64,000 nucleotides of DNA from positions 806,001-870,000 of the forward strand of contig NW_027590170.1 of the NCBI RefSeq assembly GCF_964213995.1, written 5' to 3'. Both the position numbers and the translations under genes were made by a program. Each line of letters starts with the position of its first letter. The first letter of the stretch is position 1. Source of the DNA: Mustelus asterias. Its lineage: Eukaryota. Under the pieces are notes generated by a model. It saw only the letters and a list, made by a program, of their open reading frames with translations. It did no database searches and was not told the origin of the DNA. This document shows positions 32,015 to 38,337 of the stretch, in pieces.

Positions 32015-32458
32015 CGTCTTTTCGGCTGCAGCCTGCTGTTTTAGTTCTTGCCCAATTGTCCTGGAGTGCTTGATAAATCGCCATTTTAGGTGGGCCGTTT
32101 GGCCACAGTCCCCTCTTTGATCCTGAATGCGAAGCGTGATGGATCACAAACTCAGGACCAGTATCTGTCAGGAATTCCACAGTCACTCAACAGTCAAGCA
32201 AGGCCCAGGCATTGGCATGCACAGCAATGACACATTTCTACAACATATTTACATTCCAGAAACTACAGAGAGTAACACTCTACAAATACAAGCAATCACA
32301 TATTCTAAACACCATTATTACAATAAGCTAATTATAAACCAACATTCAAACAAACATTCCAATAAGGTATCGCAGATCTGAGGCACATTTTGATAGTCGG
32401 ATTTCCAACGGTTCATTAATACAAATCGCAAAATGGCAGGCTTCCTGTAAACATTGCT

Positions 32459-34234
32459 CTACTGATTTAGAGGGGACCGTGGTTCAAGAGCGGACCCAAC
32501 GTCCTGCCTCCGGGTGATCCCCTTTCTCCATCGGCTGAATTGGACTGTGAGGATGATTAGATATACCAGGGTGAACAAAATCAGTAATACCGCCATGTCT
32601 GACATAATGTGAACAAATGGGTGGATTTGATGTTTGAGCCCCAGTTCCAAACGTCATCCCAGCAAGAGGTGACTTTAATTTATTTAATTCCCCTTTTCAC
32701 CTCTTGGGTCTGCTGTATTACTTTGGTGAAGGTTCTGTGGGCTGTAGCCAATTTTACCCGAATCTGCTTCAACTCCTCCGGTAGGGGTTTAAGGCTTGTG
32801 TCATATTTCTCGTGGTATTCCCCTAGAGCCTGTCGGAGCTCGTCAGTGGCGTTCAAATCTACCCTCTCGCTCTTATGAATGTCTATGAGTTGAATGAGGC
32901 CCACCGTGGCTGATAGGTCTGGTTTGATGCAGAATGGAGTGTTCGTAATGTTACTACGTGTCGCGCCATACTGATATTATTTCAGGGAGGTGGTGAGACA
33001 GTATCTCCCTACTCCCTTGTTAGCCACTCGAGTTATGTCTGTGTCCAGGCTACAAGCTTCCAGTGAGCAATTTAGGCTGGTGTTTATTCTGAAGCCACAC
33101 AGTGCATGCTCATTTAAGTAAACTAGGAACGGGTATGCGATTATTTCGTCAGTTTGCCGACACCTGTCCAGAGTAGTGCCTATGAGTCTGCCTTCTTTCT
33201 CCACTGCGTACGGTAAAGTGCCGTCGTACCCTATCCAGATATCCTCATGGATAGTCCTTGTATTTTCCACTTCATAGACCCGGTCCCGACATTATGAATT
33301 ATTACTTTATTTATTATGACATTATGTCACCGTCCTCTAATTTTTGCCTGATAATTTGATTGATTGTCTTGACGTGTCCTTCTAATACAGCGACCATGTG
33401 GCTGCTGGCTGCGTTCACAGTCAGTTCCCCTTCAGCATCTTGCCGATTGTCCTCATTAATGGAATTTCGCGTCTGTTTAACCTGTTGGGTCAGAATCCTA
33501 ATTTTACTCTCCAGGTAGGCTAATTCAAGGGCATTGTTGTTTGCTATCCCTGCCCCGTATGCTGTGGCCATGTCATTGACTAACTCCCTCTTGGATCTTT
33601 CCTGCCTTTCATCCATTCTTCTCTTCCATCCTAACAGTCTGCGAGTCAAGTGGATGTTAATCTCTTAATTTGGGGAGAGCACCACTCTAGCAGTTGGGTC
33701 CCAGCTATATCCACCACCACAGGTACCAATTTGTGGTGGATGTTGTCATACAGGGTTTCCCCTGTGTGTTTTAGTATCAATCCATTCTGTGGTCCGGGGT
33801 GGCTCCAGGACAAATCGAGTGGGATGGGTCTGGGGTTGGCTTCGGCCCAGTTCTTATTTCGTACAATGCAAAGTTCCTCTCCATGAGTGTCCCGGGGCAC
33901 TGCTGCCTGAGCTCTAATCCTTTTTCTGGGCTGTTGGCCAGACATCCAATTTCAGGGCATCCATTATTTTAAAATCCCCACCAATCCCCTGCGACGGTGA
34001 CACTCAGATAACATTCAGCTGAACAGCCATTTGTTTTTGTGTGTATCAGCCGCTAGTTGTTACACCCAAACATTATACTCTTATCGGGATGCACCCATAA
34101 CACGCCATCCTCACATTCCCCAGCGTCATGTGGGGCAAACCATAAATAACTGGGATACCACAAGTTCACCTTGCTTGGAGTGTCCTGCGTGCTTATCCCG
34201 ATGATGAGTCCGATGAGTAGATCGTAGGTTGCAT
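32459..34234 (-). pseudogene. ERV env, F-protein-like class I fusogen (frameshifted)
   Basis: Signal-like LLIGLIIGIS; GLILKHTGETLY..LVPVVVDI; furin RSKR followed by Ala/Gly-rich peptide and heptad repeat; Cys-rich region; second helix; TM AVLLILFTLVYLIILTV. Confidence 0.75.
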
Positions 34235-35378: not shown

Positions 35379-36829
35379 TCAATGGCCGATATCTAGCGAG
35401 TCGCGCCAGCCCTCGAGGGTGCGCAAGTCTCCTGTTATGTGTAAGTCGATCAGTACCCCTCGAGGCACTTCAGGTGTGAACGAGGCTCTGGGCTGTAGCG
35501 TGGTAGGGGTAAGCGTCTGGTCTGAACCTGAAAGTGGATGAGAACGTGTCTGTGGAAATATATTTCCGGTGAGGCTGTCATCTTCCCCTATCTCGAATGT
35601 GAGATGGTGGAAGTGATTATTCTGAGTCCCGTAAGCTTTCAGTTGATTGACGTGGAACCAACCGGTTTTCCTGTTGGCGATCAGGACCTTATACACTGAG
35701 GGAGGGGCTTAATTTGTCGGTGATGGTGTGCGGACCTGCATATCTCGGGGACATGAAAGAACTGGGGTTGGAGAGGGAAATCATTACCTGCTGGCCAGCC
35801 GTATATTCTACCGGGTGTACCCTTTTATTGAAATATTCCTTGCTCTGTTTCTTTTTTAACTCCTAATCGGACAGCCGCGGCTCACTCGGCTGCTTTAATG
35901 TTTTCGGTTATCTGCTGGACGGCTTTCTCATGGGTGAGCGCTGTGATAGCAGGCTCAGTTAAGTCAAACCACAGTAAGTATTCAGCTCCCCTCATAGGTC
36001 GGCCAGTCATTAATGTAAGGGGGGTGAACCCAGTAGAACTGGAAATGGTGTTGCGTACAATCATGAGGGCAAAGGGAAGTACTGTATCCCATGTTGCGTT
36101 GTTTTGCTGCACTGTCTTTCTAATGATCCCTTTTAGCGTTCGGTTCATGCGCTCTACGAATCCGCTGGATTGTGGATGGTAGGCAATATGGAATTTCTGC
36201 TTGATGCCAAACATAGCCATAACGTTCTGCATCACCTGCCCTGTGAAATGTGTCCCTTGGTCGGACTCTATGCTGTGGGGAAGACCCCATCGTGTAAATA
36301 CCTGCTGGGCTAATATCTTTGCGGTGGCCTTAGCTGTGTTGGATTTTGTGGGAACCCATTTGGTTTGAGTGTCCATCATTGCTAGGACGTATTTAAATCC
36401 GTTCCTACATGATGGTAGTGGGCCGATATAATCAATTTGGAGATTTGTCCAAAGGCCTTCTACTGGGTATGTGTGCCTTAGCTCCCGCTTTTCTGCATAT
36501 CTATTGGGGTTGTTCTGGGAACAAATTAAACAATTGTCGATATAATGTCGTTGGGCAGTTCGGGCCACCAACATAATTATTTTAATCGCTCGATTGTTGT
36601 CTCTTTGCCCTGGGACATGTCTGCCATGCTACTGGTAGATAAGCTGATTTCTGTCCAGGGTAGGGACTACGTATGTGCCTGCCTTTAATATCAAACCATC
36701 CTCAATCTGTATTTTGTCCTTCCATTTCTCATATGGGGCTGGGTAGACTCCTTCTAAAATTTGTTTTTGGGAACTGTCAGTGCGCTGTGCCTGGACCAGG
36801 TCGTCTATATTAATTTGCCAAATGGCCAC
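35379..36829 (-). pseudogene. ERV integrase
   Basis: CLIC zinc-finger half, WTNLQIDYIGPLP, SDQGTHF, SSGFVERMNRTLK (D,D35E), GP..WFHVNQLKAY C-terminal domain. Confidence 0.92.
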
Positions 36830-38337
36830 AGCGTTTACTTGCTCTCCTACAGGTTGCTGCCAAAATTGTCCCGTACGGGCACTGGCCTTGGCTAATGCAT
36901 CGGCCTTACAGTTGCCAGGTGGGGAGGTCCTGTGGTGGCTTCAAACCTTAATAATTCCATATGTTCGCCCTTCGGTGGCCTACAGAACATATTTCAATAG
37001 GCAGGATAACGATAGGCCCTTCTGTCCGCAGAGACGAAGACTCTGGCTTCCCATAACGGTAAGAACTCAGTCAGGCTGTTGCACGCTTACATGCTATCGG
37101 AGTGTATGTTGGCTTCCCCTTATTTTGAGGCTATGCCCCCTAGTTCTAGTTTCACTCGCCGGTGGAAACAACTTCCCTGCTTCTCTCTTATCGATTCCCT
37201 TCATAATCTTATATGTTTCTCTAAGATCTCCCCTCATTCTTCTGAATTCCAATGAGTATAACCCCAGTCCACTCAGTCTCTCCTCAGAAGCCAACCCTGT
37301 CAACGCCGGAATCAACCTAGTGAATCTCCTCTGCACCTTCTCCAGATCCAGTATATCCTTTCTCAAATAAGAGACCAAAACTGTACACAGTACTCCAGTT
37401 GTGGCCTCAGCAGCACTTTATACAGTTGCAACATAATCTCGGTGTTTTTAAACTCTATCCCTCGAGCAATGAAGAACAAAATTCCATTTGCCTTCTTAAT
37501 TACGTGTTGCACCTGCAAACCATCTCCTTGAGATTCCTGTACAAGGACACCCAGGTCCCTCTGCACAGAAGCATGCTGCATTTTTTTACCATTTAAATAA
37601 TAGTCCATTTTGCTGTTATTCCTACCAAAATGGATGACCTCACGTTTACCAACATTGTACTCCATCTGCCAGACCCTCGCCCACTCACTTGGATTACCTA
37701 TATCCCTTTGCAAACTTTCAGCGTCCTCTGCACACTTTGCTCTTCCACCCATCTGAGTGTCATCTGCAATTACACTTGTTCCCCAACTCCAAATCATCCA
37801 TGTAAATGGTAAACAATTGCGGTCCCAACGCTGATCCCTGAGGCACACCACCTGTCCCTGATCGCCAACCAGAAAAACACCCATTTACCCCCACTCTTTG
37901 CTTTCTGTTAGTTACCCATTCGTGGCTGTCCCTTTCATGTTCCACATAAATGCCACATCCTGTGATTCTGGTCCCATCCACTATTTTGGATAACCGCCGA
38001 CATAAATTCTCATGGCTGGGTCTGTCCATTGGGCGGCTGTCTGTTTTGTCCCTGACCATGTATCCTGTTGTTTCGGGATAAACGGACCTGTGGGGTCCTT
38101 TGCGGCTAGAAGTTATAACCTATAGCCTATAACCTGACACTCATGCGGATTTCCCCCATAATTTAAATTATCTGCCAGGAACGTGGGCACTTTCTGCCAA
38201 AAGCATCGATTAGCTGGATCAAATGAAAAATTACATTTATTCATGTAATCGGAACCAAGAATGTGTTCACCGTTTGGGGGAAGGTCAATTAACACCACCG
38301 GATGGTCACACACCATGCTGCCTCGGCGGACCTGCAC
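36830..38337 (-). pseudogene. ERV protease C-terminus, tether and RNase H (split by a CR1 insertion)
   Basis: HILGSDYM (retropepsin); FLADNL (tether); MRIYV(D)G..ITGCGIYV (RH N-terminus, ~37940-38013); IIKV*SHH..PGNCKADALAK (RH C-terminus, ~36885-36960). Confidence 0.75.
37110..37920 (-). mobile_element. CR1 RT fragment inserted in the ERV RNase H
   Basis: [39 protein letters not shown]. Confidence 0.9.

Follow-up and report, generated by a model that had tools for sequence, protein, structure and literature searches.

A 64,000-nucleotide stretch of the Mustelus asterias genome (NCBI RefSeq assembly GCF_964213995.1, contig NW_027590170.1, positions 806,001 to 870,000; hereafter the window) carries on its minus strand, at positions 38337-32016, a decayed provirus copy with a protease stub, a split RNase H (RH), an integrase (IN), an env gene, and the start of a 3' long terminal repeat (LTR). 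We conclude, with a probability of roughly 0.8, that this copy is a dead member of a class III-like canonical retrovirus whose envelope protein (Env) is predicted to be of the F type, resembling the fusion (F) proteins of paramyxoviruses and pneumoviruses, and that it is not a lokiretrovirus. The sequence-only reading of this DNA had described an endogenous retrovirus (ERV) with an F-like Env and assigned it to a chondrichthyan loki-like lineage. The motifs that it quoted are all present where it had placed them, all on the minus strand, and the ERV and its F-like Env are borne out by the family layout and by agreeing fold, profile, and ESM Atlas searches, but the polymerase contradicts the assignment to lokiretroviruses.

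The element is not a chance feature. In the 3.68-Gb assembly, a DNA search with env returned at least 79 matches at 86-100% identity (40 scored of 502 candidates) and a protein search at least 133 (127 scored of 1956 candidates); these copy counts are lower bounds, given that only part of the candidates were scored. Sister copies reveal the layout of the family: LTR, primer-binding site (PBS) for tRNA-Arg, gag, in-frame stop, pro, reverse transcriptase (RT), tether, RH, IN, env, polypurine tract (PPT), and LTR. Two near-full LTRs (~0.8 kb, TG...CA) were found in three of ten neighbourhoods, with 4-bp target duplications that are exact in two of these copies and have a single mismatch in the third. 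The PBS of copy C14 is complementary at 18/18 positions to L051, a tRNA-Arg(UCU) gene found in this genome, with CCA added. The LTR-LTR distances of the three two-LTR copies (Kimura two-parameter) are 0.049, 0.067, and 0.071; by t = d/2u, these correspond to 11-16 Myr at a mammalian rate, 49-71 Myr using the rate of 0.5e-9 assumed in PMC10699275, and 112-160 Myr using the rate assumed in PMC4422223. The insertions appear to be old, and their dating is poor.

Read in the natural frames of sister copies, Gag has a coiled-coil-like N-terminus, with no match to the SMC family in the Gag region, and one CCHC knuckle (zf-CCHC, E 1.1e-8). An in-frame stop separates gag from pro in all three junctions found among 11 loci scanned (TGA, TGA, and TAA), and downstream of it the natural frames encode protease, RT, tether, RH, and IN. 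In L038, RT_RNaseH(_2) is followed by RNase_H within one frame, giving a tether and a second RH; this arrangement is common to all retroviruses and is not diagnostic for lokiretroviruses. No accessory open reading frames were recognised in the family. The features that define Retroviridae at the family level are all present: LTRs, PBS, PPT, gag-pro-pol-env, dual RH, and an RT that falls inside Retroviridae.

The copy in the window has no RT, and we used the RT of sister copies for placement. We kept 77 of 78 database rows (P0129 was too short) and built trees of 79 rows (quick), of 44 of the 79, and of 28 of the 79 under a mixture model. In all three, the family falls within Retroviridae, to which lokiretroviruses are sister; its support there is 100/99 (44 rows) and 100/98 (28 rows, mixture model). 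Approximately unbiased (AU) tests reject a clade of the family with the two loki rows (p 0.034, and p 0.011 for the 28 rows under the mixture model), and gypsy rows are separated from the family at 100/100. The nearest kin are frog and coelacanth ERVs and unnamed proteins (clade support 97 in the quick tree, then 81/87 and 85/92). The RT motifs tell the same identity: LPQGF in L035 and PPQGF in L034, together with NAPIWPV...LDISNGFWSI, resemble the row of the snakehead retrovirus (SnRV) in the alignment of PMC7947760, and the family lacks the motif B PFG(Y/L) present in all 24 loki rows of that alignment. Homologue P0100 matches the SnRV row and was identified as SnRV Pol by motifs of that alignment; the eel homologues P0132 and P0134 match the Loki-Aro row.

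Pairwise scores rank the relatives further. The closest named virus is SnRV (P0100, 53% identity over 138 residues). With the N-terminal half of RT, BLAST gave 156 bits for SnRV, 121 for loki, 117 for epsilon-like, 112-117 for ERV-L, and 54-57 for gypsy rows; phmmer gave 210-237 bits for frog and coelacanth ERVs, 184 for SnRV, and 119 for foamy viruses, summed scores of some bird rows being left unused because they were inflated by several matched stretches. IN is 46-54% identical to frog and coelacanth ERVs, 37-39% to loki rows, and 35% to SnRV. As to the earlier label of a spuma-like integrase, the tether-IN frame matches Ty3 first among solved structures and the IN of prototype foamy virus next, but the integrases of frog and coelacanth ERVs give far higher scores. 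In viral_contigs, a scan with RT returned no relative. We regard the RT as placed among canonical retroviruses and likely in the class III or 'Huo' grade near SnRV and ERV-L. Clade Huo has been described as SnRV-related, as including class III ERVs, and as infecting all vertebrate groups (Xu et al. 2018, PMC6001957), and SnRV-related ERVs (CmiERV lineage I) have been reported from elephant shark (Han 2015, PMC4422223).

The env gene starts further upstream than had been thought, at an ATG at 34234. It encodes a signal-peptide-like start, an N-terminal domain of ~130 residues, the F2-like strand already noted from the sequence (GLILKHTGETLYDNIHHKLVPVVVDI, 33783-33706, minus strand), a helix, a furin site (RSKR, 33598-33587), and a putative fusion peptide, followed by a long heptad helix, a Cys-rich region (33280-32980), a second helix, a transmembrane segment (TM, 32599-32543), and a short tail; LPYAVEK...DEII lies at 33216-33139 on the same strand. 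In natural sister copies the N-terminal domain, which contains Cys residues, is in frame with the F2-like strand and the furin site, and the frames of L003 and L009 run on from the furin site through the TM. The F2-like strand and RSKR are ~40 residues apart, and Env has a single strong TM peak. We predict a protein of ~670-690 residues with an F1-like part of ~455 residues and a tail of ~30. The distance of ~1.1 kb from cleavage site to env end, given earlier, is correct for this copy but is shortened by the 236-nt deletion listed in Table 1, which is absent from all three aligned copies; undeleted, the distance is ~1.36 kb. As had been claimed, gamma-type hallmarks are missing: CX6CC, CXXC, and LQNR-type immunosuppressive-domain motifs occur in none of four Env frames (two natural frames of the genome and two database homologues).

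Several partly independent methods predict that the family Env is a paramyxovirus/pneumovirus-F-type fusogen. We modelled two natural Env frames with AlphaFold2 (pLDDT 68.5, pTM 0.37; pLDDT 65.0, pTM 0.49). A Foldseek search of PDB, for which F or Baculo_F-like matches had been expected, placed foamy Env (8rm1, E 4.8e-7) first for the first model, followed by the F proteins of human metapneumovirus (hMPV), respiratory syncytial virus (RSV), and measles virus; for the second, the best match was F0 of human parainfluenza virus 3 (hPIV3, E 1.7e-7), followed by F of RSV and Newcastle disease virus (NDV), and all 44 rows listed are F proteins. In BFVD, the model matched arthropod-virus glycoproteins, baculovirus F, and the Env of walleye epidermal hyperplasia virus (E 2.2e-4). 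VIA-align ranked NDV F first (Z 9.1), with hMPV F at Z 8.1 (rmsd 5.5 over 217 residues); more than 200 residues aligned to F proteins alone, and model residue ~100 meets the start of mature F. A 43-row Env profile found foamy Env first in PDB, weakly (E 0.046), across the Cys-rich region, and ESM Atlas returned Baculo_F/Gypsy Env at 0.93 and Fusion_gly at 0.89. The family Env shares its predicted core of nested F2/F1 domains with the F proteins of paramyxoviruses, pneumoviruses, and baculoviruses and with errantivirus Env, and so too the furin site with the fusion peptide and heptad helix that follow it. Identity is 8-15%, and the family Env is carried by a retrovirus and has an extra N-terminal domain. 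We rejected haemagglutinin as a candidate for that domain, the sole lead being an ESM Atlas value of 0.77.

A profile-free search of cluster representatives found 47 homologues, and a word-index protein search found one close match. We looked up 16 and could name the hosts of 13: 11 come from seven elasmobranchs (Chiloscyllium, Mustelus, Heterodontus, Pristiophorus, Rhinoraja, Heptranchias, and Scyliorhinus) and two from frogs (Pelodytes and Xenopus). Records GCC29952.1, XP_078086612.1, and XP_031752662.1 are examples of the named homologues. The nearest named ones are all from sharks or rays, in keeping with the elasmobranch-type setting proposed from the sequence. Homologues in sharks, skate, and frogs are 20-36% identical, and in several the N-terminal domain is Ig-like instead of Cys-rich (from the record name, with one V-set match at E 0.045). 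No labelled SnRV Env was among the 47 homologues or the 50 BFVD rows shown; its tail is reported as 136 residues (PMC12193657), compared with ~30 in the family. Three homologues, P0041, P0049, and P0071 (bamboo shark, parsley frog, and a third record), are full-length at 723-749 residues and differ in their N-terminal domains, at least two of which are Ig-like; they are candidates to check for host co-option. Pieces of the family Env also lie in annotated shark gene models, an fbxo15 isoform of Heterodontus (P0046) and a cadherin-related 5-like model of Pristiophorus (P0078), through either exonisation or an annotation artefact.

To describe env evolution we used 28 of 30 subfamily-A loci (L002, a duplicate, and L017, too short, were left out) and 11 copies of a second, younger subfamily B. 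Between the subfamilies Env dN/dS is ~0.07, with dS saturated; Env appears to have been under purifying selection during viral life. The synonymous share is higher among variants common to at least three copies (41/92) than among private ones (118/418; p 0.003), an excess that fits spread by reinfection. A search of sequencing runs listed no RNA data set carrying the query, with shares of at most 0.26, and we draw no evidence from it. Subfamily B (L053-L064, for example G000:C26:31978600-31985900) has an Env 64% identical to that of the main subfamily. A copy followed over its whole length consists of LTR-gag-env-LTR without a pol match, its LTRs are 97.5% alike, and it has a 4-bp target duplication; its primer site differs from that of the main subfamily, and we take it to be tRNA-Arg(CCU)-like. 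One of the 11 subfamily-B copies has an env frame without a stop, with pN/pS of 0.22 compared with 0.32-1.01 and LTRs that differ by 2.5%. We considered domestication of this frame and did not adopt it: with LTRs only 2.5% apart, it may have survived by chance.

Several points weigh against our reading. On the polymerase side, the family RT row is a 149-residue N-terminal half from which the C-terminal RT fragment was left out, and the references comprised two loki rows, both from one eel host, and no foamy or FLERV row. The support for the frog/coelacanth clade (81/87 and 85/92) appears limited. The family is not sister to SnRV in any RT tree, a constrained SnRV grouping (p 0.089) being not rejected, and branching at the base of Retroviridae lacks resolution; nor does the IN tree, which included no CGIN1 row, resolve the basal order. 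On the envelope side, the models are of moderate confidence, with an unfolded N-terminal domain (pLDDT <50), and the VIA-align Z values are middling. None of seven Env frames and none of 28 alignment members has a Pfam F-family match, and single-sequence Env searches of Pfam and PDB gave no match, including to PF00523, which had been expected. The Ala/Gly-rich stretch after RSKR, read as a fusion peptide, is present but weakly hydrophobic, with no 19-residue Kyte-Doolittle peak above 1.0. Finally, recurrent CpG transitions may have inflated the synonymous excess among shared variants.

In the ancestral virus, as we picture it, tRNA-Arg would prime reverse transcription and Gag-Pol would arise by UGA read-through, as in SSSV/ZFERV. 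Read-through at gag-pro has been described for SnRV (UAG) and for SSSV/ZFERV (UGA) (PMC13517186); the family shares the in-frame stop with SnRV but uses mostly UGA. Env would be translated from a spliced RNA and cleaved at RSKR by furin, yielding a surface part (N-terminal domain, F2-like strand, and helix) and the F1-like part. The N-terminal domain would likely bind the receptor, given that no second glycoprotein is encoded, and the F1-like part would refold into a trimer of hairpins and fuse the membranes, as modelled for foamy Env (PMC11468914). Reinfection likely accounted for at least part of the family's spread in the germ line, and decay followed.

That the family is instead a chondrichthyan lokiretrovirus, with its F-like Env on a Pol sister to other retroviruses, is already largely refuted, and we consider it very improbable. 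Lokiretroviruses (Wang and Han 2021, PMC7947760) do share gag-pol-env and dual RH with the family, and both Envs are F-like with a short F2, an RxKR site, and a long F1; by eye, the family Env shows the loki motifs GP..G.IL at the F2 start, RxKR, G.IP/VP, and LG.IL.LPII of that report. The Gag N-terminus, coiled-coil-like, is reminiscent of the loki 'Smc' part. Relatives are auto-named 'NYNRIN-like' in the database, and loki IN is reported to be near CGIN1. We rejected this identity on the RT motif, tree position, and AU tests given above, and IN is likewise closer to frog and coelacanth ERVs. The loki Env is also shorter (~520-560 residues), its fusion peptide is more hydrophobic, and none of the eight loki consensus Envs, one of them partial, has the extra N-terminal domain; Loki-Str is reported as a single Smc-Gag-Pol polyprotein, whereas the family has a gag-pro stop. 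Nor is an F-like Env specific to lokiretroviruses, given that foamy Env has the same fold (PMC11468914). The earlier statement that cartilaginous fishes were outside the loki host list agrees with the supplement of PMC7947760, in which six chondrichthyan genomes were screened and none is starred. An env-carrying Ty3/Gypsy element of errantivirus type is scarcely conceivable: the nearest ESM Atlas clusters are Baculo_F/Gypsy Env and Ty3 comes first in PDB for the tether-IN frame, but the tether and second RH and the position of the RT, outside Metaviridae in the trees, led us to reject it, and the survey in bioRxiv 2023.10.26.564294 reports no such elements in vertebrates.

Foamy Env tops the solved structures by both fold and profile, as the best structural match for the F1-like part (8rm1, 8ozh; F-type 'class Ib' fusogen core, PMC11468914), and for RT and IN, too, the best retroviral match in PDB is foamy. 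Foamy-like ERVs are moreover reported in catshark and elephant shark (PMC10699275); ERV-Spuma.0-Sca of catshark, known here by its description, groups with Aci/AliFLERV and is given there as having no Env domain detected. A basal foamy-related ERV (clade Tu or FLERV grade), with an F-type Env lacking the receptor-binding domain (RBD) insert, is nevertheless improbable. PDB holds no class III ERV protein as a competitor. Foamy RT is more distant by bit score, and its motifs NTPVYPV and NGFWAHP differ from NAPIWPV and NGFWSI of the family, which are as in SnRV and ERV-L rows; Aci/AliFLERV rows are also unlike it. The family has a CCHC Gag and an in-frame gag-pro stop, unlike mammalian foamy viruses, in which Gag has no Cys-His box and Pol is made from its own mRNA. 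In foamy Env, the RBD is inserted ahead of the furin site, and a long leader contains a first TM (PMC11468914), whereas the family has its extra domain N-terminal to F2, no RBD between the F2 strand and the furin site, and no long leader.

A recombinant, in which a class III-like retrovirus acquired its F-type env only late from a virus of loki, foamy, or epsilon type, would have the same identity as our preferred reading but a different history, and its Env would then be uninformative about the ancestral envelope. This is quite plausible, if somewhat short of an even chance. Env-Pol incongruence is reported to be frequent in anamniote ERVs (bioRxiv 2021.11.23.469661). The Env of the walleye epsilonretrovirus WEHV-1, described as lacking gamma-type hallmarks and read as a later acquisition (PMC9967133), also matches the model, but it has 1317 residues and accompanies a class I (epsilon) RT. 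More speculatively, a purine run before env (below) could be the relic of an older 3' end. Env homologues 20-36% identical across sharks, skate, and frogs, together with an RT clade spanning frogs and coelacanth, argue instead for a long association, although this argument draws on separate Env and RT distributions.

Under the preferred reading of a class III-like retrovirus, the provirus in the window belongs to an ERV present in many copies and is itself dead, partly deleted, and inert now; its parts are listed in Table 1.

Table 1. Parts of the provirus copy in the window (positions are those of the window).
Feature	Position	Strand	Evidence or remarks
Protease C-terminal stub	38193..38337	-	Aligns with the pro region in 5/10 fetched neighbourhoods
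Protease motif HILGSDY	38265-38245	-	Sister frame L038 matches Pfam aspartyl protease
Deletion junction, RT and tether removed (~1.43 kb)	38193	-	Blocks abutting here are ~1.43 kb apart in copies C4a and C4b
Linker and N-terminal part of second RH	37918..38192	-	82-85% to sister copies; Pfam RNase_H on sister frame L034:2181-2891
Non-LTR retrotransposon fragment inserted in RH, ~100 nt of RH lost	37114..37917	-	Without counterpart at this position in sister proviruses
RH C-terminal part, with stops	36860..37113	-	GNCKADALAK at 36916-36887
IN: zinc-binding part, D,D(35)E core, GPY-like motif (35751), long C-terminal extension	35041..36700	-	
pol-env interval	34235..35040	-	Degenerate repeats, internal polypurine run, likely splice acceptor
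env, F-type	32459..34234	-	Interrupted by stops, frameshifts, and a 236-nt deletion at 33326/33281
3' PPT	32109..32118	-	Same place before the 3' LTR TG in copies C4a and C1
3' LTR, first 92 nt, begins TGTGGCC	32016..32107	-	Aligns with the LTRs at both ends of copies C4a, C1, and C14

Compared with ten other neighbourhoods, the copy has lost everything beyond 38337, that is gag, PBS, 5' LTR, and most of pro, and at its other end the remaining ~0.7 kb of the 3' LTR (full LTRs are ~810 nt, TG...CA). The ~1.43-kb interval that it lacks encodes RVT_1 and RT_RNaseH(_2) in sister copies. The retrotransposon fragment within RH, a piece of a long interspersed nuclear element (LINE), has a weak RVT_1 match (E 4.5e-4) and resembles further LINE pieces of the window; from its motifs we take it to be CR1-type. 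The IN, which includes LQIDYIGPLP at 36442-36413, is interrupted by stops and frameshifts (Pfam rve, E 4.3e-11 on 35885-36628); in copy L050 its core and C-terminal extension share one natural frame of 501 residues. An acceptor-like ...TCAG|GAC lies ~25 nt upstream of the env ATG in 15 of 18 copies. Measured against column majorities, the env of the window is the most decayed of the 28 copies (pS 0.088, pN 0.068, four stops). Between pol and env, degenerate tandem repeats of ~30 nt (34660-34880) differ in copy number among proviruses. An internal A-then-G purine run at 34334-34349, ~100 nt upstream of the env start, is present in all 18 printed copies and may have primed plus-strand synthesis a second time or be left over from an older 3' end.

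The provirus and its flanks recur on a second contig (L065-L066, G000:C112:921000-936000; 99.5% over 9.7 kb), as either a recent segmental duplication or a haplotype copy. That duplicate carries an extra LINE insert of ~3 kb, evidently young, which is 99.9% identical to window 6152-9197, where a near-intact young LINE has an open frame of 958 codons with endonuclease and RT domains (6253-9126, minus strand). A pair of 292-nt inverted repeats (30887-31178 and 31726-32017) is 90% complementary, and one arm starts at the 3' LTR truncation point. Nine tRNA genes (Gly, Asp, five Val, Leu, and Tyr) lie at 30234-30512, 43326-51621, and 62230-62306; the Val genes sit in repeated units of ~0.8-2 kb, a degraded copy of which adjoins the provirus at 38332-38665. 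At 22940-23902 (plus strand) is a single-frame rhodopsin-family seven-transmembrane receptor of 321 codons (Pfam E 7.5e-21), presumably GPR139-like; single-frame receptors of this kind are expanded in sharks, which, with the homologue names and the genome size, suggests an elasmobranch host.

The value of the finding lies in the family, the window's own copy being a dead fragment. In the full-text literature searched, whose coverage leaves out most subscription papers, we found no description of an F-type Env on a class III/SnRV-grade ERV or in cartilaginous fishes; a prior description is possible, and one preprint announces its vertebrate ERV survey for publication elsewhere. In fish, class III or spuma-like ERVs are described as having no detected Env (PMC10699275), an absence that we attribute to Pfam, which misses this Env in 28/28 members. 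F-type Envs are likely more widespread in retroviruses than reported, and possibly older. Separate Env origins for lokiretroviruses and canonical retroviruses had been preferred on the ground that their Envs showed no similarity (Wang and Han, PMC9040795); the F fold of foamy Env has since been demonstrated (PMC11468914). Now that a third deep RT lineage is predicted to carry an F-type Env, with homologues in sharks, skate, and frogs, the question of the ancestral envelope becomes testable by linked env-pol trees. Tentatively, and with more doubt than confidence, we propose an elasmobranch-rich, undescribed class III-grade lineage with a swappable Env N-terminal domain (Cys-rich or Ig-like), in which the F-type Env is the ancestral retroviral envelope. 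If this is true, then together with the loki, foamy, and walleye epsilon Envs the paramyxovirus-F fold would lie on most deep branches of Retroviridae, which is why we would regard it as ancestral, and gamma- and beta-type Envs would be later replacements, contrary to the preferred scenario of independent origins.

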